Positions 7,557 to 60,121 of a stretch of 64,000 nt of DNA are shown here, in pieces. The notes under the pieces are model-generated. The model had not been told where the DNA came from and did no database searches. It worked only from the letters and a program-made list of their open reading frames with translations. How positions within the stretch are numbered: position 1 is the first letter of the stretch; the number at the start of each line of letters is the position of its first letter. The stretch is from Bacteroidota bacterium. Its GTDB lineage: Bacteria > Bacteroidota > Bacteroidia > Chitinophagales > LD1. Location: NCBI GenBank assembly GCA_016722375.1, contig JADKJG010000005.1, forward strand, positions 130,435-194,434, read 5' to 3'. The position numbers were made by a program, and so were the translations under genes.

Positions 7557-10500
7557 ATGAAAAAATCTCTCCCGTTCCTTGTATGCCTACTCCTCATCCT
7601 TTTCGGAAAAACATTTCTCAGCGCTCAAGATGTAAAATGGGCCATTCGCGTCGGTGGTTCCGGCACGGAGATAGGTTTTAACATTGCGGTGGATAGTAGC
7701 AAGCGCACCTATGCTGCGCAGCAAATCATTAGCGGCACGAGCGTCAATTTCAACGGTAGTTGTACCATAACGGGAGGGTCTAACAGTTATGATGTGTCCT
7801 TTGTCAGATTAGATACTGTCGGTGCCTGTATCTCTTCAAAATATATCATCACTCAAAACGATAACGTGATGGGTTTAAGGCTGGACAGCCTCAATAATAT
7901 CTATATCGTAGGCAACCGGTCAGGAACCAATTCTCTTTGCACCTCACAGGCCACCTCCGGTCAGGACCTCTTGCTGGCCAAATTAAGCTCAACCGGTACC
8001 TGCACCTGGGGAAAAAAGATAGGTGGATCGAGTGGTGATTACGGATACCGGCTGAGCTTAGACCGCGATGGCAACATCTACATCACAGGCAGCTTTGCCG
8101 GAACCGTTTCTTTCGACGGAATATCTCTGGTATCGGGCGGCAGCAATGATGGCTTCATCGCCAAATTCAATAACAGCGGCACCATTCAGTGGGCAAAAAA
8201 ATTTGGTAGCACCGGTGACGACTTTGGGTATGGAATTTCTAATGTGGTGAACGGTAATTTCTATGTCTGCGGACGCGTTCAGAACACCGGCACCTTTGGA
8301 ACTTTATCTGCTGTCAGTAAGGGAGGATACGACGCTTTTATCGCAAAAGTAGATGCCTCTAATGGAAGTTTCGTTTGGCTGCGTACCGCCGGAGTATCCG
8401 GCGCGGCCAATGAAAATGGCATACAGGTAGTGATGGATCCATCCGGAAATGCACTTTATACGGTGCTGGTCAGCGGGGGAGCTATTTTCGGAACCGACAC
8501 GATACCCTATCGCTGTGAAGCCGTAGTCATGTATAATTCCGATGGAGATATACAGTGGACCCGACCTATGGGATCCGCTGCCGGTTATATCGGACCCAGC
8601 GTAGCCATACATGATTCCACCATTTATTTTGCAGGGGCTCTTGGTGCCACTACCTATATCGGTCCCTTTACGGCCACCACCGCAGGGGGCGCGGATATAC
8701 TTCTGGCGGCGCTGGACTATTCCGGCAAGCCACTCTGGGTAAAAACTTATGGGAGCACCGCCTCCGATTATGCTATGGAAATAGCCTGTGATCAGGAGGG
8801 TGACTTATATGTCACCGGTGTTTTCAGTGGTACCGTGAACTTTGGCGGCATCAGTCGTACCTCGTCGGGTTCTAATGACGTATATTACTTCAAAGCCACT
8901 CCACCGCTTCTGATCACCAAGGTGGCCGAAGGTAAAAACATGGTGTGCGGCACCGGAGCATTTGACGTAGCATACCGGACAGGAACTATATTCGACACCA
9001 CCAATGTATTTACCGTGGAGTTATCTGATACAGCAGGGAATTTCAGCCAACCGGTTCCGGTAGGCACGCTTAATGCTACTACCTCCGGAACCATCACAGC
9101 CACCATTCCTGATACCATTCCGGCAGGCAGCAGCTACAGATTACGAATCACCTCTTCTAACCCCGCCACTACGGGTGCCGAATACGCCACTAATTTCAGA
9201 CTATCCCCAATCCCATCCACCCCCACTCCGCCCACCCCACAAACCTCTTGCAGCGACACTACCGTGCTGTTTGTGTTTGACAGCATCCTAGCCGGTAGCG
9301 GAGGCCATCAAATTGAATGGGCATTGAGTAGTTTGTTCGACACCACCGAAATCATTGAAAGCAATGGCAGCATTAATCTCTTGGTGGAATCTGGTGCTAT
9401 GGATACGCTCTGGATGAGGAGCAGGGATAGTATAACTGGTTGTGTGAGTGGGATTGTTTGGACGACGGGGAGGGTGAATGCTGTCCCTGACCAACCAACT
9501 ACATCGGAGTTACTAACTTCTCTTGAAGACACAGTTGCAATCTTTTCATTTGACACAGTTGAGGCCGGTAGTGGCGGTGATAAAATCGAATGGAGTTTAA
9601 TAAGCGACTACAGTAGTTCAACAACTGAAACATCGCCAGCCACCCTTGCGATTGACGTAAACTCCGGCGGGAACAAAACCATTTATATCCGGACAGATAA
9701 TGAAATCACCGGCTGTAATAGCGAAAGCATAATGTTCATAGTAATGAATGGAGTACAATACGGCAATGACAGTTCCACTAATGCACCACCAACTTTCTTT
9801 TCGGTAAAAAGCCAAATGGAGGCATACATGGAAGCCAATCCTGTGGAAGAACCTGAGGAAGACGGCCCTGAGAATAATTATTTAAAATGGAAATGGTTTT
9901 GGGAGCCTAGGCATAATCCTCAAAACGGAAGGCTAGATGCTGCTGCTGCTGCTCTGATCGCTTACGGATCAAACCCGGGAAATTATTGTGATACTTCGTC
10001 GGCTTTTCCTTCAAATTGGCAATCGATGGGGCCGTCTGATGACGCGGAGCATAGAGGGCGGGTTAATCAGATTTGGATTGAGCCTGGTGATAGTAGCCAC
10101 TTAATCGTAGGCACTACTGGTGGTGTTTGGGAATTGAACGGTAATACATGGACATGCATGACGGACAACGGTGGAATACCTTCCACCGCTATTTCGGCTT
10201 TAGCCGTTAATCCTACTTCCGGTAATCAGGGAGATATAAGAGTGGGGCTTGGTTCTGCATCGCAAAGTAATGATGATCATCATCAATGGACCCACGGATA
10301 TGGATTAGGTGTAGCCATTAGGGATAAGACTTCTCATGAATGGTCAATAGATGAAGGTTTTAGAAACCATTACTATGCAATGGACTCAAATTGGTTGCCG
10401 ATAGTTAGCTCAGCCGTTTTTAAACCAGGCTCCCAAGATTTTTATGTAAGCGCAGGAAGGTATATTTTTAGAAAACTTGCAGGCCAGTCTAATTATGAAA

Positions 10501-11669
10501 CGGTTTATACCGATTTTTTCCCTTTCGCTAAAATAGGCCAAATTACTTTTTCAAAAACAGATTCTTCAAAAGCGCTTGCTACTGCAACCGGCCCCATAAC
10601 GAAATTATTGCGTTCAACAGAAGGAGGGAAATCTGGTTCTTGGGTTGATATATCAAATCATGTTTTCAAAGGAACTGATTTCAATACTACCTTTGGTACA
10701 TATCCTGATACCAATTGGGGGACATGGAATAATGTTGGCAATGGAGTTAATTGGAAAGTGGTTAGTGTTCCAATCTCAGTAAATAATATGGCTGCACGAG
10801 TTGTATCAACGTCTCAGGATAGTACTGCTACTTTAGTAAGCGAGTTTCCCGGTGGCTCGATGCAACCCAATAGCTACTGGTCAATCTCTTTTGATGCAGC
10901 AATTCCTGCCAATGTGCAACTCCGAATCCGACTTTGCCAAGATACAGGTCAAATTTATAATACCAGCTACTTCCCGCATGAAATTGCTTTTGATGTTGTG
11001 TCTAGTAATCGGCTTTTAGCCAAGTATGGTTTTTCTTTTACTAACCCAACCAATACATTTTACAGATTTATAGGCATTGATGCATATCTGCCAGGATCAA
11101 CCACACCTCTCATAATTGATAATATTACCCTCAGATCGCTTTCATCCGCTACATATTTTTATGATATTGTAAAAGACCATACAACGGGAAATCCTACCTC
11201 AGGACATGAAATAGCCTATATAGCTGTTAAGGATATGAACCATGTTGTTACCTTAGTTAAGTATGATTTGGACAATTTAAGTCATCCGGTAATCTGGTCC
11301 AAACCTGCAATTGCTTTACGTACAGATGTAAAAGTGCAGGTTCCGGAATATAACCACAATAGAATATACTTAGCTGGGTCTCAAGATTGGGTTTATAAAA
11401 CCGATAGTTCGCAATTGTCTTCGCTTTCATTTAACTTGACAGCTTCTTCCCATATTGACATCAGAAGCCTGGAATTAATTGATGAATATGGGAATGAACT
11501 ATATGTAGGTAATGACGGCGGAATAAGCAAATTATCTAATGGTGGAAGTGTAATACAAAATTATAACAAAAGTGGTTTTGCCACTAACCTCACTTTTGGA
11601 TTCAGCAGTTCGGAGGCAATTAAAAGCAGAGTTTTAGCTGGGAACGTAGATAACGCAACATTATGTTGA
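7557..11669 (+). CDS. fragment 1 of 3 of a giant T9SS cargo protein: signal peptide, SBBP-type beta-propeller repeats, Ig-like and BNR/sortilin-like regions
   Basis: Signal peptide 'MKKSLPFLVCLLLILFGKTFLSAQ'. Repeated 'GGSSGDYGYRLSLDRDGNIYITGSFAGTVSF'-type units. Ends at an in-frame TGA (11667-11669). Confidence 0.75.
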   Translation: MKKSLPFLVCLLLILFGKTFLSAQDVKWAIRVGGSGTEIGFNIAVDSSKRTYAAQQIISGTSVNFNGSCTITGGSNSYDVSFVRLDTVGACISSKYIITQNDNVMGLRLDSLNNIYIVGNRSGTNSLCTSQATSGQDLLLAKLSSTGTCTWGKKIGGSSGDYGYRLSLDRDGNIYITGSFAGTVSFDGISLVSGGSNDGFIAKFNNSGTIQWAKKFGSTGDDFGYGISNVVNGNFYVCGRVQNTGTFGTLSAVSKGGYDAFIAKVDASNGSFVWLRTAGVSGAANENGIQVVMDPSGNALYTVLVSGGAIFGTDTIPYRCEAVVMYNSDGDIQWTRPMGSAAGYIGPSVAIHDSTIYFAGALGATTYIGPFTATTAGGADILLAALDYSGKPLWVKTYGSTASDYAMEIACDQEGDLYVTGVFSGTVNFGGISRTSSGSNDVYYFKATPPLLITKVAEGKNMVCGTGAFDVAYRTGTIFDTTNVFTVELSDTAGNFSQPVPVGTLNATTSGTITATIPDTIPAGSSYRLRITSSNPATTGAEYATNFRLSPIPSTPTPPTPQTSCSDTTVLFVFDSILAGSGGHQIEWALSSLFDTTEIIESNGSINLLVESGAMDTLWMRSRDSITGCVSGIVWTTGRVNAVPDQPTTSELLTSLEDTVAIFSFDTVEAGSGGDKIEWSLISDYSSSTTETSPATLAIDVNSGGNKTIYIRTDNEITGCNSESIMFIVMNGVQYGNDSSTNAPPTFFSVKSQMEAYMEANPVEEPEEDGPENNYLKWKWFWEPRHNPQNGRLDAAAAALIAYGSNPGNYCDTSSAFPSNWQSMGPSDDAEHRGRVNQIWIEPGDSSHLIVGTTGGVWELNGNTWTCMTDNGGIPSTAISALAVNPTSGNQGDIRVGLGSASQSNDDHHQWTHGYGLGVAIRDKTSHEWSIDEGFRNHYYAMDSNWLPIVSSAVFKPGSQDFYVSAGRYIFRKLAGQSNYETVYTDFFPFAKIGQITFSKTDSSKALATATGPITKLLRSTEGGKSGSWVDISNHVFKGTDFNTTFGTYPDTNWGTWNNVGNGVNWKVVSVPISVNNMAARVVSTSQDSTATLVSEFPGGSMQPNSYWSISFDAAIPANVQLRIRLCQDTGQIYNTSYFPHEIAFDVVSSNRLLAKYGFSFTNPTNTFYRFIGIDAYLPGSTTPLIIDNITLRSLSSATYFYDIVKDHTTGNPTSGHEIAYIAVKDMNHVVTLVKYDLDNLSHPVIWSKPAIALRTDVKVQVPEYNHNRIYLAGSQDWVYKTDSSQLSSLSFNLTASSHIDIRSLELIDEYGNELYVGNDGGISKLSNGGSVIQNYNKSGFATNLTFGFSSSEAIKSRVLAGNVDNATLC

Positions 11670-11693
11670 GATGGTTCCGGCAATTGGGTTAAC

Positions 11694-14648
11694 GTGCCTC
11701 CGGTTTATGATAGTTATGAAACAGCGATTGACCGCGAAGATGGTGATAACGGATGGACCCAATTAGGCGGTGGTGATGGAGAATCTTTTTTGTATTCTAC
11801 AAATGATGTTTTAACTGGTTTTCCTCCGCAACGAAATCCGAATCAACCAGATGCAACTAATTATACGCGCCAAATCTTCATTAAACAAATGTTTTATCAC
11901 CCATGGACAAATAAGTTATTATGCGGAACGAATGACATTCAGGTTTATAATGAATCCAACGATACCTGGGCAAAGCTAAATGCCAATCAAGGGCAAGCAG
12001 GTACCTATGATTTTAGGGAGGCCGGGCTGCCAGGTGATGTAGAAAAGGGAGGAATTACTGCTATGTGGGTAGGAAAAAATTTAAAGGACGATATACAATA
12101 CGTTATCAGTAATACGTCCTTAATCTATCGCCATTGGCAGGACATTTCCGATAATAATACATGGAAATGGAGTTCGATAGGAACCCTTAAGACATACGGG
12201 AATGATTCTGCTATAAGTAACTTTACGCAAGGGCAGTATTGGGCAAAGTATCGTTATCATCTACCCATGTGCGTTACGGCAGATCCAGATAATCCTTTAC
12301 ACGTTTGGGTGGGCTTTGGAGGTATGAAAGGCTGGCACCCTGATGATCCATTGGCTAATTCTGGCGATCAACGCATTTTCCGTTCCGATGATGGCGGTGA
12401 ACATTGGACTGATTGCAGCGCTGGTCTGCCTCCTTTCCCTGTAACCAAAATTGTTTACCAGGATGGCACCGACGACATTTTATATGCAGCCACTGATATT
12501 GGGGTGTATGCGTGGGATAAAAATTTCGAAAACGACAGCGGCCCTAATGGCAGATGGGTTTGTTTCCATGAAAATCTCCCAAACGTAGTAATCACCGATA
12601 TGGAAATTGTGCAGTGCGAAAACAAAATTCGTGTTTCTACGTGGGGAAGAGGAATTTGGGAAACGGCGCTTCCACCGGTGCCGGAAGCCCAGCGGCGTGA
12701 GTTACTCATTGAAGAAAATACAACATGGAGCCATACTCGAATGGTGGCCACGACGATAAGGATTCAAAGCGATGCGGCATTGATCATCAATAACAGAGCT
12801 ACTATATTGATGGCGCCTGGAACCAGCATTATTGTTGAACCGGGAGGAAAATTGATGGTGGATAGTGGAAAAATAACCAGCGGTTGTGGCGAAACATGGG
12901 ATGGAATTATTGTTAAAGGTGACATGGCATCTCATGCGCAAAACCTGAGCACCACCAATAACGCAACAGCCATGAGCAATCAGGGGTTTGTTTATTTGTT
13001 CGGCGCGACGATAGAAAACGCCTACGAAGCTTTGCGGGTGTGGAATCCGGCGGTGGGGTGGGTGAGCGGTGATCATAATATCGGGGGAACCGGCGGCATT
13101 GTGAGGGCTGTTAATACCACCTTTAAGAACAACCGGCGAAGCGCCGAGTTTATGTGGTATAGAAATACCAATGATGCTGCCAATAAAAGTCATTTCTATA
13201 ATTGCCGATTTGAAACGGATGCCGCGCACACGCCTGTCTATCCGTTTTCCGCTCATGTAACGATGTGGGGAGTCAATGGAATAACGTTTAAGGGTTGTAC
13301 CTTTGAGAACCAGAATACGCAGAGCGATTCCATGCAAGACAAAGTATTAGGCGTGGGCATCCGGGCGATTGATGCTGGCTTTAAGGTGCTGGACTTTGGC
13401 TCACAGCGAAGCGAATTCAAAAATTTTAAGGAAGGGATTTACATCAGTTCCTTAACTTCTCCTTACAAGACCGAAGTAATTCATGCTGAATTTGAAAGCT
13501 GCATCCGGGGCATACGAAACGAAGGGGTAAATGCCTGCCGGTTTATTGATAACAGCTTTGCCATCGGTAACCTGGCGCAAATAACAAATTATCCTCCCGG
13601 GGGTATTGCAGGGACCAATGAAGGAATTGTATTGCACCAGTGTACGGGCTTCGAGGTGGAAGGGAATACATTTAACAAAGCCACCGCATCTCCTTACCCA
13701 CCGATAGGAATTCGTGCGGCCAGCACCGGAGACAACAATAACCTGATAAACGATAATACATTCAGTGGTCTTTTTATAGGTAATTTGGCAAATGGGGTGA
13801 ATCAAAACAAGAATGAAGATGAAGAAACTGGGTTAATATATCTCTGTAACATCAACGCTTCAAATATTCCCGGCTATGATTTTTGTGTGGTCAATAGGCC
13901 AATAGCTGCAGGTGGAGGAATAAACCAAAAGCAGGGTAATCACTCTTTCCCGGCTAATAATGAGTTTTCCGATTGTTCGCCCAATTGTAATTCGTTCCGA
14001 CATTTTTATAATGATACATTAGCGGTAGATGTAACGTATTATCATTTTAATCAAGCGATTCCTAATAATTTACTTTATCCAACTTATCGTACGGCTATAC
14101 CCAAATTTCGTACGCAACAAGTAGTTCTTCCCCAAAACCCCAACATCTGTCTAAGCCAATCCCCATTCTGTCCTTATTGCATTACTATTGATGACTTCAG
14201 AGATGCTTTTGTAACTCATAAATGGTCACTTCACGATTACCTACAGCAATATATCGGGCTGATTGATGATGGAGATACCCCGTATGTATTAGATGAAATT
14301 GAAAATGCCACAAACGGACCTACGCTTAAAACTTATCTTGATGGCATTGCGCCTAACCTGAGCCGGCAGGCGCTGGAGGTCAGTGTTCAAAGAATGTTAT
14401 TGCTTTCCGAAGCTGGAGTTTACGAGGTGTTGAGGGATAATGCCGAATCGGTGGACGACAGCATTATTGCTCACTATTTACAAATACTACGAATTGAATC
14501 CCGAAGGCGCGATGCCCGAATGGATGGTGGATACGATTCGTATGCGGATGGACAGCTCAACTTTACGCTCCTATTTGCTGGATACCATTTCATACCACTC
14601 CCAAGCAAAAGACCAAACAGCATTCCGCGTTCTGAATCTAATACTTGA
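11694..14648 (+). CDS. fragment 2 of 3: same frame as fragment 1; BNR/propeller-like and parallel beta-helix-like regions
   Basis: Same reading frame as 7557..11669 (both coordinates are divisible by 3). It has no signal peptide and its own start is only a GTG. Sequence is beta-helix-like (NNRATILMAPGTSIIVEPGGKLMVDSG, IRNEGVNACRFIDNSFAIGN). Confidence 0.65.
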   Translation: MPPVYDSYETAIDREDGDNGWTQLGGGDGESFLYSTNDVLTGFPPQRNPNQPDATNYTRQIFIKQMFYHPWTNKLLCGTNDIQVYNESNDTWAKLNANQGQAGTYDFREAGLPGDVEKGGITAMWVGKNLKDDIQYVISNTSLIYRHWQDISDNNTWKWSSIGTLKTYGNDSAISNFTQGQYWAKYRYHLPMCVTADPDNPLHVWVGFGGMKGWHPDDPLANSGDQRIFRSDDGGEHWTDCSAGLPPFPVTKIVYQDGTDDILYAATDIGVYAWDKNFENDSGPNGRWVCFHENLPNVVITDMEIVQCENKIRVSTWGRGIWETALPPVPEAQRRELLIEENTTWSHTRMVATTIRIQSDAALIINNRATILMAPGTSIIVEPGGKLMVDSGKITSGCGETWDGIIVKGDMASHAQNLSTTNNATAMSNQGFVYLFGATIENAYEALRVWNPAVGWVSGDHNIGGTGGIVRAVNTTFKNNRRSAEFMWYRNTNDAANKSHFYNCRFETDAAHTPVYPFSAHVTMWGVNGITFKGCTFENQNTQSDSMQDKVLGVGIRAIDAGFKVLDFGSQRSEFKNFKEGIYISSLTSPYKTEVIHAEFESCIRGIRNEGVNACRFIDNSFAIGNLAQITNYPPGGIAGTNEGIVLHQCTGFEVEGNTFNKATASPYPPIGIRAASTGDNNNLINDNTFSGLFIGNLANGVNQNKNEDEETGLIYLCNINASNIPGYDFCVVNRPIAAGGGINQKQGNHSFPANNEFSDCSPNCNSFRHFYNDTLAVDVTYYHFNQAIPNNLLYPTYRTAIPKFRTQQVVLPQNPNICLSQSPFCPYCITIDDFRDAFVTHKWSLHDYLQQYIGLIDDGDTPYVLDEIENATNGPTLKTYLDGIAPNLSRQALEVSVQRMLLLSEAGVYEVLRDNAESVDDSIIAHYLQILRIESRRRDARMDGGYDSYADGQLNFTLLFAGYHFIPLPSKRPNSIPRSESNT

Positions 14649-52281: not shown

Positions 52282-52355
52282 TCCTCCTTAGCTCAGCTGG
52301 TTAGAGCACAAGACTGTTAATCTTGGGGTCCCTGGTTCGAGCCCAGGAGGGGGAG
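52282..52355 (+). tRNA. tRNA-Asn (anticodon GUU)
   Basis: TCCTCCTTAGCTCAGCTGGTTAGAGCACAAGACTGTTAATCTTGGGGTCCCTGGTTCGAGCCCAGGAGGGGGAG forms a clean cloverleaf with anticodon loop CTGTTAA. Confidence 0.95.
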
Positions 52356-52358
52356 CAG

Positions 52359-53073: not shown

Positions 53074-53102
53074 AATGCCGCAATGTCTTCCTCTTCGGGC
53101 TG

Positions 53103-53417
53103 TGATTAAGATAGCCGCTCTTTTGATTAAAACATCAGATGATTTGATCAGGATAGCGGATGCTGTGATTAATTAAGCAAAGCTTTCGATCAAGATAGCG
53201 GAAGATATGATTAAGAATGCCGCACTTATGATTAAGAAAGCGGCTGCCTTGATTAATATAACGAACGGCTTAATCAATATAGCGGCTACTGTGATTAAGA
53301 TAGCCGAAGATGTGATTGATATAGCAGCTTCTTTAATCAATATACCGGGGAAATTGATTAAGAATCGGGGGATTATGATTGATATTCCGGGGATTATTGT
53401 TGATAATCGTTTATGGC
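53103..53417. repeat. degenerate tandem array of 15 units in a strict 21-bp register (TGATTAAGATAGCGG core plus a variable ~6 nt)
   Basis: Unit starts fall at 53103+21n for n=0..14, e.g. tgattaagatagccgctcttt, tgattaagaatgccgcactta, tgattaagatagccgaagatg, tgattgatattccggggatta. Confidence 0.9.
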
Positions 53418-53566
53418 ATAGGGGTTTATGAGCATAGTGCCTAAATCATAGTATTTTGTAACATGAAAGAGCTGTTTTTGGGCGTTTAGACTTGTCCTTA
53501 ACTAGTTTCGGCGCTCTAGCTCACGTACCGATGGCCTTTCATTCTACAGGGTGCCTTTGACAGGGA

Positions 53567-53640
53567 GGCGGCTGTTTGTCCTCCGCTGGCGGAGGTGGAT
53601 TTTTCTGCGAGAGCAGAAAAAGACAGAGGTGGAATGTTTT
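53567..53640 (+). repeat. copy R1 of a ~75-bp two-hairpin GGAGG-rich element (5' flank of the DUF559 gene)
   Basis: ggcggctgtttgtcctccgctggcggaggtgg atttttctgcgagagcagaaaaagac agaggtggaat. It is about 90% identical to 54137-54212 by eye. Hairpins: cctccg/cggagg and tttttctgc-gaga-gcagaaaaa. Confidence 0.8.
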
Positions 53641-53654
53641 TATATTTTAGAAAA

Positions 53655-54065
53655 ATGAAAGCGGATAAATCAAATAACCACGCTTACAATAAAGACCATC
53701 AACCCTTTGCAAACAAACTGCGAAAGGAAATGACCAAAGCAGAAGCCTGCTTATGGAAATTTGCCTTGCGAGCAAAAGGAATGAAAGGATATCAGTTCCG
53801 TCGCGAGCGACCGGTGCTTCATTACATTGCCGATTTCATGTGTATGGAATTGAAACTGATAATTGAAGTAGATGGTTTAACGCATCAATGGGAAGAAACC
53901 CATGCGAAGGACAACAAGAAAGATGCAGATTTGAAGGCGGCTGGTTTTATAGTCCTCCGGTTTAATGATGATGAGGTATTGAAAAATATGGGACCGGTGA
54001 TAGCGCAAATTGAAAAAGTGATTGAAGAAATCGAAAAGCAGAAAATTCCACCCCCGTCCCGCTGA
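53655..54065 (+). CDS. DUF559 endonuclease-like (Vsr/restriction-endonuclease fold) protein
   Basis: 'LRKEMTKAEACLW...LRAKGMKGYQFRRERPVLHYIADFMCMELKLIIEVDGLTH...D..KDADLKAAGFIVLRFNDDEV' is the DUF559 pattern. The ATG at 53655 is preferred over the GTG at 53595, which lies inside repeat R1. Confidence 0.8.
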   Translation: MKADKSNNHAYNKDHQPFANKLRKEMTKAEACLWKFALRAKGMKGYQFRRERPVLHYIADFMCMELKLIIEVDGLTHQWEETHAKDNKKDADLKAAGFIVLRFNDDEVLKNMGPVIAQIEKVIEEIEKQKIPPPSR

Positions 54066-54106: not shown

Positions 54107-54136
54107 ATTCATTATAAAGACAGACTTAGATAGGAG

Positions 54137-54212
54137 GGCGGCTGTTTGTCCTCCGGCTGGCGGAGGTGTCTTTTTCTGCGGCAGCAGAAAAAGACGGAGG
54201 TGGAATTTTTGT
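54137..54212 (+). repeat. copy R2 of the two-hairpin GGAGG-rich element
   Basis: ggcggctgtttgtcctccggctggcggaggtgtctttttctgcggcagcagaaaaagacggaggtggaattttt is a direct repeat of R1. Confidence 0.8.
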
Positions 54213-54989: not shown

Positions 54990-55183
54990 AGAAATGAATT
55001 TTGCGAAAGGTAAGAAATTCATTCCTGCGCTATAGGAGGGCGAGTGGGATGATGAGCGGGGTTTGAAATAAATTTAGATTTGTTGGGTGGATAGGCGCAC
55101 TCTGAAAGAAGGTATACCGAGTATATGCCAGTTAGCGGCAAGCGTAATTAGACATAAAGCATTAATATTTTAATAATCAGTTA

Positions 55184-56389
55184 ATGGAAAAGAAAAAGGT
55201 TGAACCGCCGAAATATATTTTGATTCAAAGTGAATACACTTTGGCTTATACTGATGAAGAATGTCTCGTTAATGACAAGCCCTTTAAGAAAGAAGGAGAA
55301 ACTACTCCACCAAAGGAGCTTTGCTTTGAAATACAACAATCTTTTTTTTATGAAACATTTTTGAAAAGGCATTTCAAGAATGTAGTCGTATTGACGGCAG
55401 CAGGAACTTCTTTAGACAATGGAACTAAAGAAACAAACGGCAAAACAAGAGAAGGGCTATGGACATTATGCCAAGAGGAGATAGATGCTTTTGAAGATTC
55501 AATAAAAGAAATCAAAACAAAGGAATTCTACACGAATAAAGACATTGAAGGTTTACTTTCTCATATCATTTTATTTGAAAAATTAAATGGAGTAATAAAG
55601 AAAGGCGAAACAGTTTTAAGGGAAACACTTGAAGCAAAAATTGCAGAAGCGTGTAAATTGAAGTTGCAGCCGCAAGCACCACATAAAGATTTCTTAAATA
55701 AAATTACTGCAAGAAAACCAAGCGACCCAAGAGTTCAACTTTTTACAACCAACTATGATTTGCTTTTTGAATCAGCTGCTAATCAAGGTGGCTTTGTCGT
55801 AATTGACGGATTCTCATTTACTCAACCAAGGAAATTTTCAGGAAGATACTTTGACCTTGATATTGTCAATCGAGAGAAAACAAGAATAAAACAAGAAGAA
55901 AGTTTTGTATCAAAAGTCTTTCATTTCTACAAATTGCATGGTTCATTAAACTGGTGTAAAGACGATTCAAAAAGTATTGTACAGCAAGATAGCCCTAAAA
56001 AGCCATTGATAATTTATCCCGCAAGTGAAAAATATGAAAGTTCATACGAACAACCATACTTTGAAATGATGTCAAGATTTCAACAAGCACTACGGAAAGA
56101 AAATACTTTACTTGTCGTAATTGGTTTTGGTTTTCAAGACAAGCATATTCAAAACGCTATTATTGAAGCAGTGGAACAGAATCCGAGTTTCCAACTGATA
56201 ATAGTTAGCTACACTGGAAATGATAATGATGGCATTGACACAACTTCCTTAAAACAATTCTTTTCTGAAGAAGCAAGCAAGAAAGTTAAACGAAATGTAA
56301 ACATTGTATATGACAGCTTCAGTGGTTTTACAAAAAAATATCCATCTAACTACACCTATATAGAACCCAATAAAGAATCAAGCCAATGA
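55184..56389 (+). CDS. SIR2-like (SIR2_2-type) NAD+-binding/NADase-fold protein; putative defense effector
   Basis: Ordered sirtuin-type motifs: 'VVLTAAGTS' (aa 68-76), 'TTNYD' (aa 188-192), 'YKLHGS' (aa 249-254), 'LLVVIGFGFQD'. The stop overlaps the next gene's start. Confidence 0.8.
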   Translation: MEKKKVEPPKYILIQSEYTLAYTDEECLVNDKPFKKEGETTPPKELCFEIQQSFFYETFLKRHFKNVVVLTAAGTSLDNGTKETNGKTREGLWTLCQEEIDAFEDSIKEIKTKEFYTNKDIEGLLSHIILFEKLNGVIKKGETVLRETLEAKIAEACKLKLQPQAPHKDFLNKITARKPSDPRVQLFTTNYDLLFESAANQGGFVVIDGFSFTQPRKFSGRYFDLDIVNREKTRIKQEESFVSKVFHFYKLHGSLNWCKDDSKSIVQQDSPKKPLIIYPASEKYESSYEQPYFEMMSRFQQALRKENTLLVVIGFGFQDKHIQNAIIEAVEQNPSFQLIIVSYTGNDNDGIDTTSLKQFFSEEASKKVKRNVNIVYDSFSGFTKKYPSNYTYIEPNKESSQ

Positions 56390-58044
56390 ATCCCTTTAAT
56401 CATAATTACTTTTTGGGCTACATCAATGAAGTTTCACCACAATATGTGAAAGTTCATTTTCCATCTTCAAACTTATTAGAAAAATTTAGTCACCAAGGAG
56501 TTTTTTATGCTGGCGGAAATGTTGGAAATTTCATTGTGATTGAAGGAGAAGAAATCGGATTTCTTGCACGGGTAATTGAAATTGAGTTGCCTGATGGCGA
56601 AAGAAAATCAATAAGTGAAAAAGCAATTCAACATGATGAAACTACTTTTCATCCTTCTGGCAAGGCAGAGTTATTATTAAGTTTCAGTGTATTTGAACCA
56701 CAGAAAACAGAAAAGACTGTTTCAAAATATCCCGCAATTGGTGCAAAAGTTTACTCATGTTCAGATGAACAAATTGCAATTTATGTAAAGGAGTTTGGAA
56801 AGAAAAAAGATGAATCAGAAAATGTTTACGCTGATTTAGGTAAGCTGACTTCCAATGATGCGGCCTGCAAAGTTTCAATGAATTCAATTTTTGGACGACA
56901 TTGTGCAATAGTCGGAACAACAGGAGGTGGAAAGAGTTGGACAGTTGCAAAGTTGATTGATGAAGTAAAGGCCAAAACAGACAATAAAGTAATTCTCATT
57001 GATGCAACAGGTGAATACAAAAGTGTTTTCACTAATAATGTCGTTTTTGGTATTGATACTTCATTTCCTTTTAAATATCTTTCAAATAGTGATTTTTGTT
57101 TTCTTTTTCAAGAACACTCTCCAAATACAGTGGGCGCACTTTGCGATGCAATTCATAGTCTGAAATTAATTGAACTCGTGGCAATCACTGACGGCATTAA
57201 AATTGGCAAAAATCAAGACAATTGCACAAGGTTGGTAAGGGATAATGTTCACAAATTCAGGAATTGCAATTTCAAAATTGAAAATCTTGCATCACAAGTT
57301 GCAAATGAATGTGTAAGAGTTGGGAGGGGAAATAATTATGAAGAGGATAGTTTTAAACTTGGTTATACATCCCACTTAATTTCAAGAATCAATTTGCTTT
57401 TAAATAATCATATTGTTTGCTCGGCATTAGGTATAAAAACTACTTCAAGCTCTGAAACAAAGGACATTATAACTGTGCTTGATGACTTTTTAAAACCAAG
57501 TAATAAGAAATCAGTATTAAGAATAGGATTTGAAAAGTTATCGTATGATTTTGCAATTAGAGAACTTATCGTTGACTTTCTTTCTTCACACCTTTTAAAA
57601 AAATCAAGAGAAGATAAGTTTATCGCAAATCCTTTAATCCTTTTTATCGATGAAGCACATCAATTTCTAAATAAAAGAATTAATGCAGAAGACAATACTA
57701 CATTCTCTTTACAGAATATTGACCTGATTGCTAAAGAATGTCGAAAGTATGGTTTGTTTCTTTGCTTAGCCACACAAATGCCAAGAGACATACCAGTTGG
57801 AACTCTAAGCCAAATGGGAACTTTCATTGTTCATAGGCTAATAAACGAACAGGATAAAAAATCGATTGAGAACGCGGCTTCATCAGCAAATAAAAGCGTG
57901 TTAGGATTTCTTCCAACTTTAGGTGAAGGGGAAGCATTATTAGTTGGAGTTGATTTTCCAATGCCATTATTAGTTAAGATTACAGAACCGGAAAAGAAAC
58001 CGCAATCAAATACACCAAGACTTAAATCAAAAGCAATAAAATAA
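56386..58044 (+). CDS. HerA-like (DUF87/FtsK-HerA superfamily) ATPase; putative partner of the SIR2 protein
   Basis: N-terminal barrel-like segment (YINEVSPQYVKVHF...GNFIVIEGEEIGFLARVIEIEL), Walker A 'GTTGGGKS' (nt 56914-56937), Walker B 'LILFIDEAH' (nt 57634-57660). ATGA overlap with the upstream gene. Confidence 0.85.
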   Translation: MNPFNHNYFLGYINEVSPQYVKVHFPSSNLLEKFSHQGVFYAGGNVGNFIVIEGEEIGFLARVIEIELPDGERKSISEKAIQHDETTFHPSGKAELLLSFSVFEPQKTEKTVSKYPAIGAKVYSCSDEQIAIYVKEFGKKKDESENVYADLGKLTSNDAACKVSMNSIFGRHCAIVGTTGGGKSWTVAKLIDEVKAKTDNKVILIDATGEYKSVFTNNVVFGIDTSFPFKYLSNSDFCFLFQEHSPNTVGALCDAIHSLKLIELVAITDGIKIGKNQDNCTRLVRDNVHKFRNCNFKIENLASQVANECVRVGRGNNYEEDSFKLGYTSHLISRINLLLNNHIVCSALGIKTTSSSETKDIITVLDDFLKPSNKKSVLRIGFEKLSYDFAIRELIVDFLSSHLLKKSREDKFIANPLILFIDEAHQFLNKRINAEDNTTFSLQNIDLIAKECRKYGLFLCLATQMPRDIPVGTLSQMGTFIVHRLINEQDKKSIENAASSANKSVLGFLPTLGEGEALLVGVDFPMPLLVKITEPEKKPQSNTPRLKSKAIK

Positions 58045-58116
58045 CTTACCAACTCGGCTGAAACGGAGCTAACGCAGAGCGACGAGGATGTGTAAGGGTT
58101 TGCATTTGTAAATGCC

Positions 58117-59517
58117 TTAACTATTTCCCTCCCCCGGTTTACCGTCCTTCACGGGGACGGCCTTTAGCTCAATACCACTCTTTATGTCCTCTTCATATTG
58201 CTTATATATATGCTCGAAGGAAAGGCCGATGTCAAAATCGGCAAGTACAGATTCGATATAGGGTGTAGGATCAAAACCGGTATTGTGGCAATAGATAAGC
58301 ATGAACCAGCAGATATGGAACAGCCGCTGTGCAAATTCCTGAAAGCCTTCCCCTTCGAAGGTCACAGAGCCATCGGCTTCATTTACTGGTAGCCTTTTAT
58401 CCAATATCAGGTCACCCATCAGGAAATAAGCCCTTGCGTCGTGGTCCTGAAGAAAGAAGAATATACAGGGAACACTTTTGCACATACCGGATATCCAGCG
58501 CATCGGTATCGGTTGGCCTTTCCAGCCGTCGTCGGTCATCGGGTTTCCATCGCGGTTCAGAAAATTGAGTTGCACCGAAAAAAGAAATTTTTCGATGAGC
58601 TTTGGAAAATGCTGCAGCGTCATCACCAGTTCATCCATGTAGGCCGTTTGACCGGATTTCACCACATCCATATCCACAGATATGACCAGCGTTTTGTTTT
58701 GTCCGCTGCCCATCAGTCCCATACTGTTTTTAAACTTTTGGATACGCTCGTCGCCGGGTGGCATCAGGTATTTGGGTTTGGTTTTAGGGTCACCGGTTCC
58801 GTTGGCATAGCTTTCGGAAAGCGAGCAGTCCAGCATTTTTCCGTCATCATAAAAATCTGAAGCCAGCTTTTTGGTTTCATCCCATTCGCGGTAGGCTTCG
58901 CCCACCCGGTAATTCAATTCACCATAACGATTCACTATTCTGCTGCATCGTTTTTCAAAATCGCGGAGTTTAGTGAAGCGCCCCTTGAAATCATCGAAGT
59001 CGCTGTCGAAAGCGGTAAGGTCGAGCGAATATTTAGCGTGGTTTTTATAAAACTCATCAGTCTCATTTCTGAACTTGTCATAAACCTTATTCACGGCTTC
59101 ATTCAATTCATTAAACCGGTTGTAGTCTTTCTCGATGTTTTCGAACTCGTTATAAACCGGAGCCAGCTCTTCTTCATGAAAATCATTCACGGTTGGGTAG
59201 TAAGCCTGGATACGTTCCATAAGGTCGTTAACCGCCTCGGTGCTTTTTAACTTGGTTGTAAGCACTTCGGCCTCATTTTTAAAAGCTTGTAAGGTTTCAG
59301 CAACCGGTTTGAATTTTTCGTCCACCGCCTTCACTTTGTCTTCAAACTCGGTGTATAGATAAAGCAAGCGCTCGGCTTCCTTGTTTAATTCCTGCATGCG
59401 CGAATGGAGCGCGAGGTAGGATTCGAACAGTTGTTTCTCGTATTCAGACTCGGGTATGGATGGGTCGTAGCGTAGGTTGATGGTCCGCAAGGGGTGTGGT
59501 GTCTTCCGTTCTTTCAT
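58117..59517 (-). CDS. hypothetical protein: N-terminal ~230 aa predicted coiled-coil/helical, C-terminal ~200 aa globular domain
   Basis: 466-aa ORF with no internal stops. The N-terminal half is E/K/F/N-rich with heptad-like spacing. I recognise no catalytic motif. Confidence 0.6.
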   Translation of the reverse strand: MKERKTPHPLRTINLRYDPSIPESEYEKQLFESYLALHSRMQELNKEAERLLYLYTEFEDKVKAVDEKFKPVAETLQAFKNEAEVLTTKLKSTEAVNDLMERIQAYYPTVNDFHEEELAPVYNEFENIEKDYNRFNELNEAVNKVYDKFRNETDEFYKNHAKYSLDLTAFDSDFDDFKGRFTKLRDFEKRCSRIVNRYGELNYRVGEAYREWDETKKLASDFYDDGKMLDCSLSESYANGTGDPKTKPKYLMPPGDERIQKFKNSMGLMGSGQNKTLVISVDMDVVKSGQTAYMDELVMTLQHFPKLIEKFLFSVQLNFLNRDGNPMTDDGWKGQPIPMRWISGMCKSVPCIFFFLQDHDARAYFLMGDLILDKRLPVNEADGSVTFEGEGFQEFAQRLFHICWFMLIYCHNTGFDPTPYIESVLADFDIGLSFEHIYKQYEEDIKSGIELKAVPVKDGKPGEGNS

Positions 59518-59726
59518 GGGCGAAATTTAGAAACGAAGTTAGAGAAAATTTAGCTTATTTCAAGAGGACTTTGCAGCTTCTTTTGAAAATCAAGTTTATT
59601 GAATATCCTCTCTCTACATTCTCTTCATGTCTTCGTCTAAAGCCTACCGTGTGGACACAACTTTAAAATGGCAACATGTTACAAAACCATTCTATTGTTT
59701 GCACTTTTAACGATTATCGGATAAAA

Positions 59727-59811
59727 AATACAGTTTAACGCAAAGAATTCAGTCGTTGACTATATCTTTTGCGCTCTTTGCGCGGCTGTTCACTTTGCGT
59801 TAAACTGTATT
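59727..59811. repeat. perfect 19-bp inverted repeat with a 47-nt structured spacer
   Basis: aatacagtttaacgcaaag (59727-59745) pairs with ctttgcgttaaactgtatt (59793-59811). The spacer holds the small hairpins agtc-gtt-gact and gcgc-tcttt-gcgc. It is followed by cggttttt. Confidence 0.85.
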
Positions 59812-60121
59812 CGGTTTTTCAAATCCAAACAGCTTCTTATTTTCCGATAAAATATTTTTAAAAATCAAGATCAAAAACAGGCAATATTTTATTTTTTGCT
59901 GTGGATTTAATAAATATCGCTACCTGAATTTATTTCACAGCTAATAAAATCATTTTAATTTCCGATATAAATAAAAATAAAGAAAGCAGATAATTTTATA
60001 GGGTCTTCAGTATATTTTCAAAAGGCGGCTTATTTTTATATAAATCAAACGAAATTATTTTAGTTGCCAATTATTTATCTCATTTTTGATGTAGTTTAAT
60101 TTGTAAAATAAATTCGGAATC

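Follow-up and report, generated by a model that had tools for sequence, protein, structure and literature searches.

A putative SIR2-HerA anti-phage system of Bacteroidota and the apparent exchange of a helical cassette in its HerA ATPase

SIR2-HerA systems have been known since about 2020 and several of them have been resolved by cryo-electron microscopy. Here we describe a SIR2-HerA gene pair in a stretch of 64,000 nucleotides (contig JADKJG010000005.1, positions 130,435 to 194,434), referred to as the window, which belongs to a 409 kb contig of a Bacteroidota metagenome-assembled genome (MAG). In GenBank the two products bear no more than the labels 'SIR2 family protein' and 'ATP-binding protein'. 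A preliminary description of the sequence had read the two genes as a candidate NAD+-depleting anti-phage operon. According to the present analysis the pair is very likely a complete and intact SIR2-HerA (Nezha-type) anti-phage system of a mainly Bacteroidota subclade that was acquired horizontally. The exchange of a cassette within HerA among its relatives is the one new point; the rest of the system is ordinary.

The first gene (55184..56389) has an ATG start and encodes a SIR2 protein of 401 amino acids (aa; MBL0309638.1), the predicted NAD+ hydrolase (NADase) effector. The second (56386..58044), also with an ATG start, encodes a HerA protein of 552 aa (MBL0309639.1), a predicted hexameric FtsK/HerA-type ATPase. 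Both genes and all features within them lie on the plus strand. The open reading frames (ORFs) are found where the preliminary description had placed them, and the overlap of stop and start that it had claimed is read in the sequence as ATGA at 56386..56389, a -4 junction of translational coupling. The G+C content (GC) of SIR2 is 33.3% and that of HerA 33.2%, compared with 41.9% for the whole window, 47.0% for the rluA-like gene and 46.0% for the gene at 58117..59517, so that the low values counted earlier by hand are borne out. GC at third codon positions (GC3) is 0.26 in SIR2 and 0.22 in HerA, while 13 other genes of the window range from 0.40 to 0.54. At the edges of the tract, about 55140 and the HerA stop at about 58045, GC changes sharply, within about 50 nt. 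The left edge is formed by an AT-rich leader on the plus strand (55140..55183), where GC drops from 0.43 to 0.27 in 100-nt windows; it abuts the SIR2 start and a promoter in it is only presumed.

The 401-aa protein matches Pfam SIR2_2 (3e-13; 50.5 bits, cut-off 24.5) and, near full length over residues 63-389, the PADLOC SIR2 model PDLC04075 (3.1e-81). Each motif named in the preliminary description, in SIR2 and HerA alike, is found at the residue given there. Among 29 SIR2 orthologues of 60-80% identity the motifs of the NAD pocket hold invariant positions: A73, G74, T75 and S76 in the Gly-rich NAD-binding loop VVLTAAGTS (55385..55411, residues 68-76), T188, N190, Y191 and D192 in TTNYD (55745..55759, residues 188-192), and K250, H252, G253 and S254 in YKLHGS (55928..55945, residues 249-254), H252 being the predicted catalytic histidine. 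In VVIGFGFQD, a strand-loop of the SIR2_2-type Rossmann fold (56114..56140, residues 311-319), G314, F315, G316, F317 and D319 are invariant. Family models and invariant motifs thus uphold the sirtuin NAD pocket that had been recognised by eye. The solved structures matched by this protein with phmmer are only SIR2 subunits of SIR2-HerA complexes, namely SaSir2 of Staphylococcus aureus (8yhx, 5e-25), E. coli 8j4u and Paenibacillus 8w9l. In the phmmer alignment N190 and H252 fall on N226 and H287 of SaSir2, and VVIGFGFQD falls on 'iigYGFpDeH'. The residues N190, D192 and H252 correspond to N163, D165 and H212 of the Paenibacillus SIR2 (PMC11472057). N226 and H287 of SaSir2 are completely conserved and were proposed as a catalytic dyad; mutation of H287 abolishes NADase activity (PMC11514289).

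Both proteins were modelled with AlphaFold2 (AF2) as monomers only. The SIR2 model has a predicted local distance difference test score (pLDDT) of 77.6 and is weak only in the loops 220-254 and 279-287. In Foldseek its first 34 places are taken without exception by SIR2 subunits from SIR2-HerA complexes (E 4e-14 to 3e-8); SPARSA, ThsA and DSR2 follow only at 1e-5 to 1e-3. The N-terminus of SIR2 (55184-55360, residues 1-60) diverges fastest, with 22-54% identity compared with 80-98% in the core, and is still modelled confidently (pLDDT about 94) as a small beta-hairpin module (residues 10-34) and a helix. The N-terminus of the S. aureus SIR2 touches the HerA barrel (PMC11514289).

The 552-aa protein carries DUF87 (2.5e-20) and HerA_C (2e-9), both above the Pfam gathering cut-offs, as is SIR2_2 in its partner, and matches the PADLOC HerA model PDLC04103 near full length (1.8e-150, residues 2-548). 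Its earlier assignment to the DUF87 ATPases of the HerA/FtsK superfamily therefore stands. In phmmer searches it matches defence HerA proteins whose partner is SIR2 or DUF4297, with E of about 1e-28. The AF2 model (pLDDT 82, predicted template modelling score 0.80) has three domains, and Foldseek places the E. coli SIR2-HerA structure 8sub first (5e-30, template modelling score 0.70) with Paenibacillus 8wld alongside, at 16-21% identity.

The protein begins with a beta-barrel (HAS domain; 56386..56790, about residues 1-135), all-beta in the AF2 model, which is the predicted SIR2-docking face. In solved complexes this N-terminal barrel inserts into the SIR2 ring (PMC11514289). The barrel is 87-94% identical among close relatives, and such conservation is consistent with a docking interface, not proof of one. 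Invariance in the remainder was assessed in 60 HerA homologues. Walker A, GTTGGGKS (56914..56937, residues 177-184 with K183), is invariant at G177 and T179-W185, and the DATGEY motif (57001..57018) at D206, T208, G209, E210 and Y211. Then follows the middle cassette (57022..57630, residues 213-415), an alpha-helical bundle inserted in the RecA fold, here of the 'type A' allele described below. Walker B, LILFIDEAH (57634..57660, residues 417-425 with D422 and E423), is invariant from D422 to F427. The C-terminal half of the RecA-like domain with a short tail (57661..58041) completes the protein, which has no long arm domain; in this part, relatives of either cassette type share 75-92% identity with the window. 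The tail itself (57970-58041) is of low predicted order (pLDDT about 55) and holds the residues P535, P539, S541, T543 and P544, invariant in the 60 homologues (P..P.S.TP; KKPQSNTP in the window); it may serve as a brace or docking peptide. For MBL0309639.1 the homology search returned no 100% match, and the representative of its 90% cluster is a fragment of 35 aa, a technical trap for users of cluster representatives.

SIR2_2 with its N, D and H residues, the HerA domains, the co-conserved adjacency of the genes and the hits to the family hidden Markov models (HMMs) are all found. By these sequence features the pair is a member of SIR2-HerA, in a mainly Bacteroidota subclade that appears distinct from the solved systems. 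The architecture of the SIR2-HerA defence family, which the preliminary description had recognised, is confirmed by the near full-length PADLOC matches and by solved SIR2-HerA complexes as the top Foldseek matches. Among solved SIR2 proteins that of S. aureus SaSir2-HerA (8YHX/8YHO; PMC11514289) is the best sequence match. Its gene order is likewise SIR2 then HerA, and its HerA of 562 aa also has three domains and no long arm. Structure-based identity to the window proteins is only about 18%, however; the helical bundles of the two HerA proteins are not alignable by sequence, and the beta-hairpin module of SIR2 is the window's own. The best structural match is E. coli Nezha/SIR2-HerA (8J4U, 8SU9, 8SUB), with E 5e-30 for HerA and E 4e-14 for SIR2. 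It shares the two-gene architecture, and its mechanism, a 12:6 complex with an ATP-gated NADase, is the one expected here; it differs in its low identity (16-24%), in the host phylum and in that the window pair misses the equivalog models widely. The system of Paenibacillus sp. 453MF (8W9L, 8WLD; PMC11472057) has the same order of domains in HerA, beta-barrel, RecA-like domain and inserted alpha-bundle, at about 21% identity. Its HerA has 696 aa with a C-terminal arm (aa 576-696), in contrast to the window HerA, which in having no such arm resembles the S. aureus and E. coli proteins.

The Sir2-HerA types I-III of E. coli are deeply divergent, with 13-22% identity and differing phage spectra and triggers (PMC13434337). 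The window subclade is a comparably divergent lineage. It is as far from Nezha as these types are from each other, and those types are mechanistically different. The nearest enterobacterial lineage found is 33% (SIR2) and 35% (HerA) identical to the window and resides on Klebsiella IncF plasmids; a copy of this type, with about 80% DNA identity, occurs in 22 of 5426 E. coli genomes. The HerA of HerA-DUF4297 (8XAU, 9C1M, 8ZIQ) is as close to the window HerA as any SIR2-partnered HerA (phmmer 1e-28, Foldseek 4e-28), but its partner is a Cap4-like nuclease, whereas the partner in the window is unambiguously SIR2. ThsA of Thoeris, DSR2 and the SIR2-APAZ protein of SPARSA share the SIR2 NADase fold and the logic of NAD+-depleting abortive infection. 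They are weaker structural matches (against 1e-14 for SIR2-HerA) and differ in partners or sensors: SLOG and cyclic ADP-ribose, binding of the tail-tube protein, and prokaryotic Argonaute, respectively. From the archaeal HerA-NurA resection machinery the window pair differs in its SIR2 partner and in the lack of NurA, Mre11 and Rad50 in the neighbourhood, and models of archaeal-type repair HerA score below defence HerA models on the window protein.

Searches of the protein database at E <=1e-5 returned 1837 homologues of SIR2 and at least 3895 of HerA, and a scan of one genome per species gave 80 loci. These are mostly from Bacteroidota (Bacteroidales, Sphingobacteriales, Flavobacteriales and Cytophagales), with a scatter of loci from MAGs that carry the labels Limnohabitans, Bacteriovoracaceae, Hyphomicrobiales, Rhizobium, Treponema, Endomicrobiellum and others. 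In 79 of these 80 loci the gene immediately downstream of SIR2 is HerA. At the exception (L055, 8112-13061) an AAA_21/ABC-type ATPase gene precedes SIR2 (405 aa), which is followed by a Tn3-family resolvase and a transposase; its HerA was probably lost to the transposon. In 72 of the 79 pairs the genes overlap or are separated by a gap of at most 3 nt, the commonest junctions being -14, +2 and -20. Pairwise identities of SIR2 and HerA are closely correlated (r=0.97). Carriage by phages is rare, with 5 weak matches in GenBank phages and 5 IMG/VR contigs. Six close relatives (L010, L012, L015, L023, L025 and L026; SIR2 identity 59-80%) come from MAGs with the labels Limnohabitans, Bacteriovoracaceae, Hyphomicrobiales, Treponema, Rhizobium and Endomicrobiellum, which reflects either cross-phylum transfer or binning errors.

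The genomic context of the relatives was assessed with 140 ORFs from 55 related loci, at most two on each side of the pair. Type I restriction-modification (R-M) genes are frequent among them, encoding specificity (10), methylase (6) and restriction (3) subunits; Methylase_S, at 10 of 140, is the commonest neighbour across loci. Further near ORFs encode RhuM (5), AbiEii-like AAA_21 proteins (5), KAP NTPases (3), GmrSD (3) and Type ISP enzymes (2), and RloB and Schlafen-like domains are also present. A control set of 140 ORFs 6-10 kb off comprised conjugative-transposon Tra proteins, integrases and housekeeping enzymes and had no such defence enrichment. In L001/L002 (3800-17227) an orthologous pair, with a SIR2 77% identical to that of the window, is located inside a Type I R-M operon in the order hsdM, RhuM, hsdS, SIR2, HerA, DUF6998, PDDEXK_4, DUF6088, an uncharacterised gene and hsdR. 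A Parabacteroides copy adjoins Fic and HipBA, and the copy on a Klebsiella IncF plasmid lies amid insertion sequence elements, McrBC and AbiJ. More distant relatives (HerA 45%, SIR2 37% identical) are found on Listeria plasmids, and others on Bacteroidota conjugative elements. The preliminary description had named conservation of the motifs, conservation of the pair and location in variable islands as checks on its reading. The first two turned out in its favour: the NAD pocket is invariant in the 29 SIR2 and the Walker motifs in the 60 HerA proteins, and the pair is broken only at the Tn3-interrupted locus. As to the third, relatives sit among R-M, abortive-infection and conjugative-element genes.

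Among the related loci, L067, L068 and L070-L077 (about 10001-12939) carry a pair 43%/42% identical to that of the window, with identical scores and near-identical flank GC, in Sphingobacterium, Croceitalea, Empedobacter, Zunongwangia, Flavobacteriaceae and Chitinophagaceae hosts. TraM, TraO and DUF4138 genes occur in the distal flanks across related loci. Together this suggests a widely transferred conjugative element.

DNA similarity between the window and its relatives starts at 55182-55206 and ends at 58032-58052, that is, it covers just the two genes. The low-GC tract and the DNA homology both coincide with the two genes, which supports horizontal acquisition. In most related loci GC of the pair is 27-35%, while that of flanks or host is 30-57%; as it stays stable in such varied flanks, the cassette takes its own composition from host to host. 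The earlier proposal of horizontal acquisition thus gains support from GC (33% versus 42%), the GC3 gap, homology limited to the pair and relatives on plasmids and conjugative elements, and we regard acquisition as a minimal two-gene cassette as supported by the sequence comparisons. No integrase or transposase was found beside the pair in the window, family scans revealed no integrase or R-M system near it, and no repeat or target-site duplication of >=8 nt is common to both intergenic borders, the listed repeats being at chance level.

Because the ranks of the relatives by SIR2 identity and by HerA identity were discordant, identity was scanned along the proteins. In comparison with four relatives (L008, L009, L010 and L027), identity of the window HerA amounts to 84-96% in residues 1-200 and 76-94% in the final 100 or so, but to only 18-46% from about 200 to 420. 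The edges of this segment are sharp: in the pairwise alignment with L010, residues 1-212 are about 93% identical and residues 213-415 about 25%, and from 416 onward identity returns to about 88%. From 183 HerA homologues, the ones that match the window at >=87% identity in their N-terminal third were classed by their middle segment. The distribution is bimodal, with type A, which includes the window, at 73-86%, type B at 26-29% and none between. The middle segments are mutually homologous (29-44% identity, E 1e-20 to 1e-63) and form discrete lineages. Between types their identity is about 29% both where the rest of HerA agrees at 55% and where it agrees at 92%, whereas within types it climbs from 50% to 85%. 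Four-point comparisons give opposite topologies, (window, L010)|(L013, L016) for the rest of HerA and (window, L013)|(L010, L016) for the middle segment. Three independent A/B pairs stand on close backbones, L007/L010 (SIR2 93% identical), L022/L021 (SIR2 87%, HerA outside the cassette 89%) and L013/L016 (SIR2 76%). SIR2 identity correlates with that of HerA outside the cassette (r = 0.82) and not with that of the cassette (r = 0.08); the remainder of HerA co-evolves with SIR2. With each of 11 type-B relatives, DNA homology breaks off at 57017, the end of the DATGEY codons, and resumes at about 57515-57727, near Walker B. As many independent sequences are involved, assembly artefacts are ruled out. 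It is therefore well supported at the sequence level that at least two ancient cassette alleles, about 28% identical, have been repeatedly exchanged between operons otherwise 76-95% identical, and the conserved DATGEY and Walker B motifs appear to be the exchange junctions.

The cassette is mostly helical (AF2 pLDDT 85-92) and corresponds to the alpha-bundle domain, aa 228-396, of the Paenibacillus HerA, which sits on the side of the ring away from SIR2, its 'bottom' (PMC11472057). In Sulfolobus HerA the alpha-bundle is the DNA pore entrance, and it keeps apo S. aureus HerA in a closed trimer. A search with the cassette only in 1.84e9 representative proteins gave 56 matches, essentially all of them HerA-length proteins with the segment at the same position, or fragments. 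Net charge was considered as a distinction between types A and B and rejected, there being no meaningful difference. The ratio of nonsynonymous to synonymous substitutions (dN/dS) is 0.04-0.11 in the middle and 0.02-0.07 in the flanks, and omega is 0.02-0.12 everywhere. Domain-wide positive selection is neither shown nor excluded, since dS is saturated (>=1) in all usable pairs; dN of the middle domain is 3-6 times that of the flanks in several pairs. A literature search of incomplete coverage found no paper on natural exchange of the HerA alpha-bundle. Triggers and specificity determinants of SIR2-HerA systems remain largely undefined (PMC13434337). It is conceivable, and we propose it tentatively, that the exposed alpha-bundle is a swappable determinant of the sensed trigger or DNA structure, or of the phage inhibitor that is evaded; that it tunes the response is suggested by its being the segment exchanged as a cassette. 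If this is true, near-isogenic natural chimeras such as L007 and L010 allow the mapping of trigger specificity. A shuffled domain on near-identical backbones is in any case a direct, testable handle on specificity.

The domains, conserved catalytic residues, coupling, pairing, fold, defence context of relatives and foreign composition were all computed here, and the window system has all parts that a SIR2-HerA mechanism needs: the barrel, Walker A and B, the catalytic N, D and H and tight coupling. Stoichiometry of the complex, activation logic and NAD+ depletion are carried over from the literature. In characterised members 12-14 SIR2 subunits stack into a two-layer ring, the NAD pocket opens on assembly, and ATP checks the NADase plus helicase, nuclease or nickase activities (PMC11472057, PMC11514289, PMC13434337). 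In E. coli type III, phage single-stranded DNA-binding protein (SSB; Gp2.5) or Gp5.9 plus nick-derived DNA ends also act as triggers (PMC13434337). By analogy, the overlapping SIR2 and HerA genes would be co-translated, and about 12 SIR2 subunits would form a double ring into which a HerA hexamer docks with its N-terminal beta-barrels. SIR2, auto-inhibited when alone, would become NADase-competent once in complex with HerA, and cellular ATP would restrain this activity until infection causes ATP to fall, lays DNA ends bare and/or introduces a replication protein of the phage, for instance SSB. NAD+ would then be hydrolysed via N190, D192 and H252 and growth would stop before phage progeny are formed. 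The pair is, on this analogy, probably an NAD+-depleting abortive-infection defence. The preliminary description had called trigger recognition unexplained for want of an adjacent sensor gene. This is no puzzle, because in characterised systems it is the SIR2-HerA complex that reacts to falling ATP, to DNA ends or to SSB proteins of phages (PMC13434337); being its own sensor, it needs no separate one.

Several points weigh against this interpretation. The pair scores 116.4 bits with the NCBIfam equivalog model SIR2_antiphage (NF042942, cut-off 500) and 151.3 bits with HerA_antiphage (NF042943, cut-off 800), far under the cut-offs, and so belongs to the broad family, outside the orthologous lineage behind those models. 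In structure-based alignments identity to every solved system is 16-24%. Subtypes this divergent differ in triggers and enzymes, nickase versus helicase/nuclease (PMC13434337), so that gating details, be it Nezha-like passive ATP sensing or a type III-like trigger and nickase, are not safely transferable. Assembly of the complex rests on analogy, the models being monomers, and the SIR2 model is of low confidence at 220-254, around H252. The window pair is in no obvious defence island; its neighbours are uncharacterised genes and one DUF559 gene. No promoter was identified: a sigma-70-like TAGACA-17-AATAAT at 55149-55177 does not stand out from shuffled sequence, and a promoter/terminator scan, which does not model Bacteroidota promoters, gave 12 matches compared with a shuffled expectation of 11.0. 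A literature search found no experimental report on this subclade. To that extent the preliminary description was right in calling the system uncharacterised; PADLOC HMMs, on the other hand, already cover the subclade, and PADLOC-type pipelines would annotate the locus automatically.

An isolated position, the lack of an identified promoter and a composition still strongly foreign would also be expected of an inactive or orphaned remnant, unexpressed or nonfunctional in its present host, the pair having no recognisable defence island or mobile element around it. Such decay is unlikely, as neither ORF is truncated when set against >100 homologues, no invariant catalytic or structural residue has been lost, the ATGA coupling is intact, and dN/dS against the closest relative (0.04-0.09) indicates purifying selection.

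The system might alternatively be larger and require a neighbouring gene for a sensor or second effector. One candidate is the DUF559/Vsr-like nuclease-fold gene at 53595..54065, 1.1 kb upstream of SIR2 (Pfam 2.1e-32), whose product gives a weak PADLOC match to a methyl-directed restriction enzyme (7.5e-7). The other is the gene of a 466-aa protein (58117..59517, minus strand), which converges on HerA with 72 nt between them and encodes an N-terminal coiled coil with weak SMC/JetC-like matches and an uncharacterised C-terminal domain. Both neighbours, however, resemble the host in GC (0.41-0.48) and fall beyond the low-GC tract, DNA homology with relatives stops at the two genes, neither recurs beside the pair in the 80 loci, and homologues of the 466-aa protein adjoin an ArsA-like ATPase, not SIR2-HerA. 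Two-gene SIR2-HerA suffices for defence (PMC11472057, PMC13434337). On composition, missing co-conservation and the limits of DNA homology we rejected both genes as components, and a larger system is very improbable. The earlier statement that no sensor, methylase, nuclease or integrase gene is adjacent holds for integrase and R-M genes and has to be amended for a nuclease, in view of the DUF559 gene.

A non-defence function, either HerA-NurA-like processing or repair of DNA ends or sirtuin-type protein deacylation, draws on the resemblance of HerA to archaeal repair HerA (Foldseek 4d2i and 9x1m; NCBIfam repair models 1e-25) and on the sirtuin-superfamily fold of SIR2, but is hardly credible given that defence-type models score far higher, that NurA, Mre11 and Rad50 are not adjacent, that SIR2 falls with the SIR2_2/defence clade and not with deacetylase sirtuins, that the distribution is patchy and horizontally transferred with R-M and Abi neighbours in relatives, and that characterised homologues are NADases (PMC11514289).

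We therefore consider a functional SIR2-HerA defence system likely. The survey documents a large, experimentally untouched lineage, mainly of Bacteroidota, which includes gut Bacteroides and Parabacteroides.

Regarding the surroundings of the pair in the window, an Rfam scan detected two tRNAs only. One of them, tRNA-Asn (GTT) at 52282-52356, lies 2.8 kb upstream of SIR2 and opens a stretch of poorly conserved genes and repeats: the rluA-like gene, repeats, the DUF559 gene, a 231-aa gene, SIR2-HerA, the 466-aa gene and a 205-aa gene. It could mark an old integration hotspot; no integrase is present. The 231-aa protein has no family matches and its gene has host-like GC. Direct repeats of about 100 nt, 79-89% identical, flank the DUF559 gene (53538-53639 and 54108-54210). 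They carry a TTTTTCTGC...GCAGAAAAA hairpin and occur in two copies only in the window; the DUF559 gene may form a small unit that is mobile or has been duplicated. For the 466-aa protein only 32 homologues were found among 5.8 billion proteins, with at most 43% identity, all unnamed and non-syntenic; on the three contigs inspected they converge on the ArsA-like ATPase beside a large PKD/CHU_C protein. Right after the rluA-like gene, at 53102-53363 (and 53355-53397), there are seven copies of a degenerate 42-nt repeat with a 21-nt half-unit, and an ORF over these repeats (53207..53431) would encode a repetitive peptide rich in I, L, A and K. The intergenic region 59500-60100 has 31% GC and contains a perfect 19-nt inverted repeat (59727-59745/59793-59811) together with more AT-rich palindromes.

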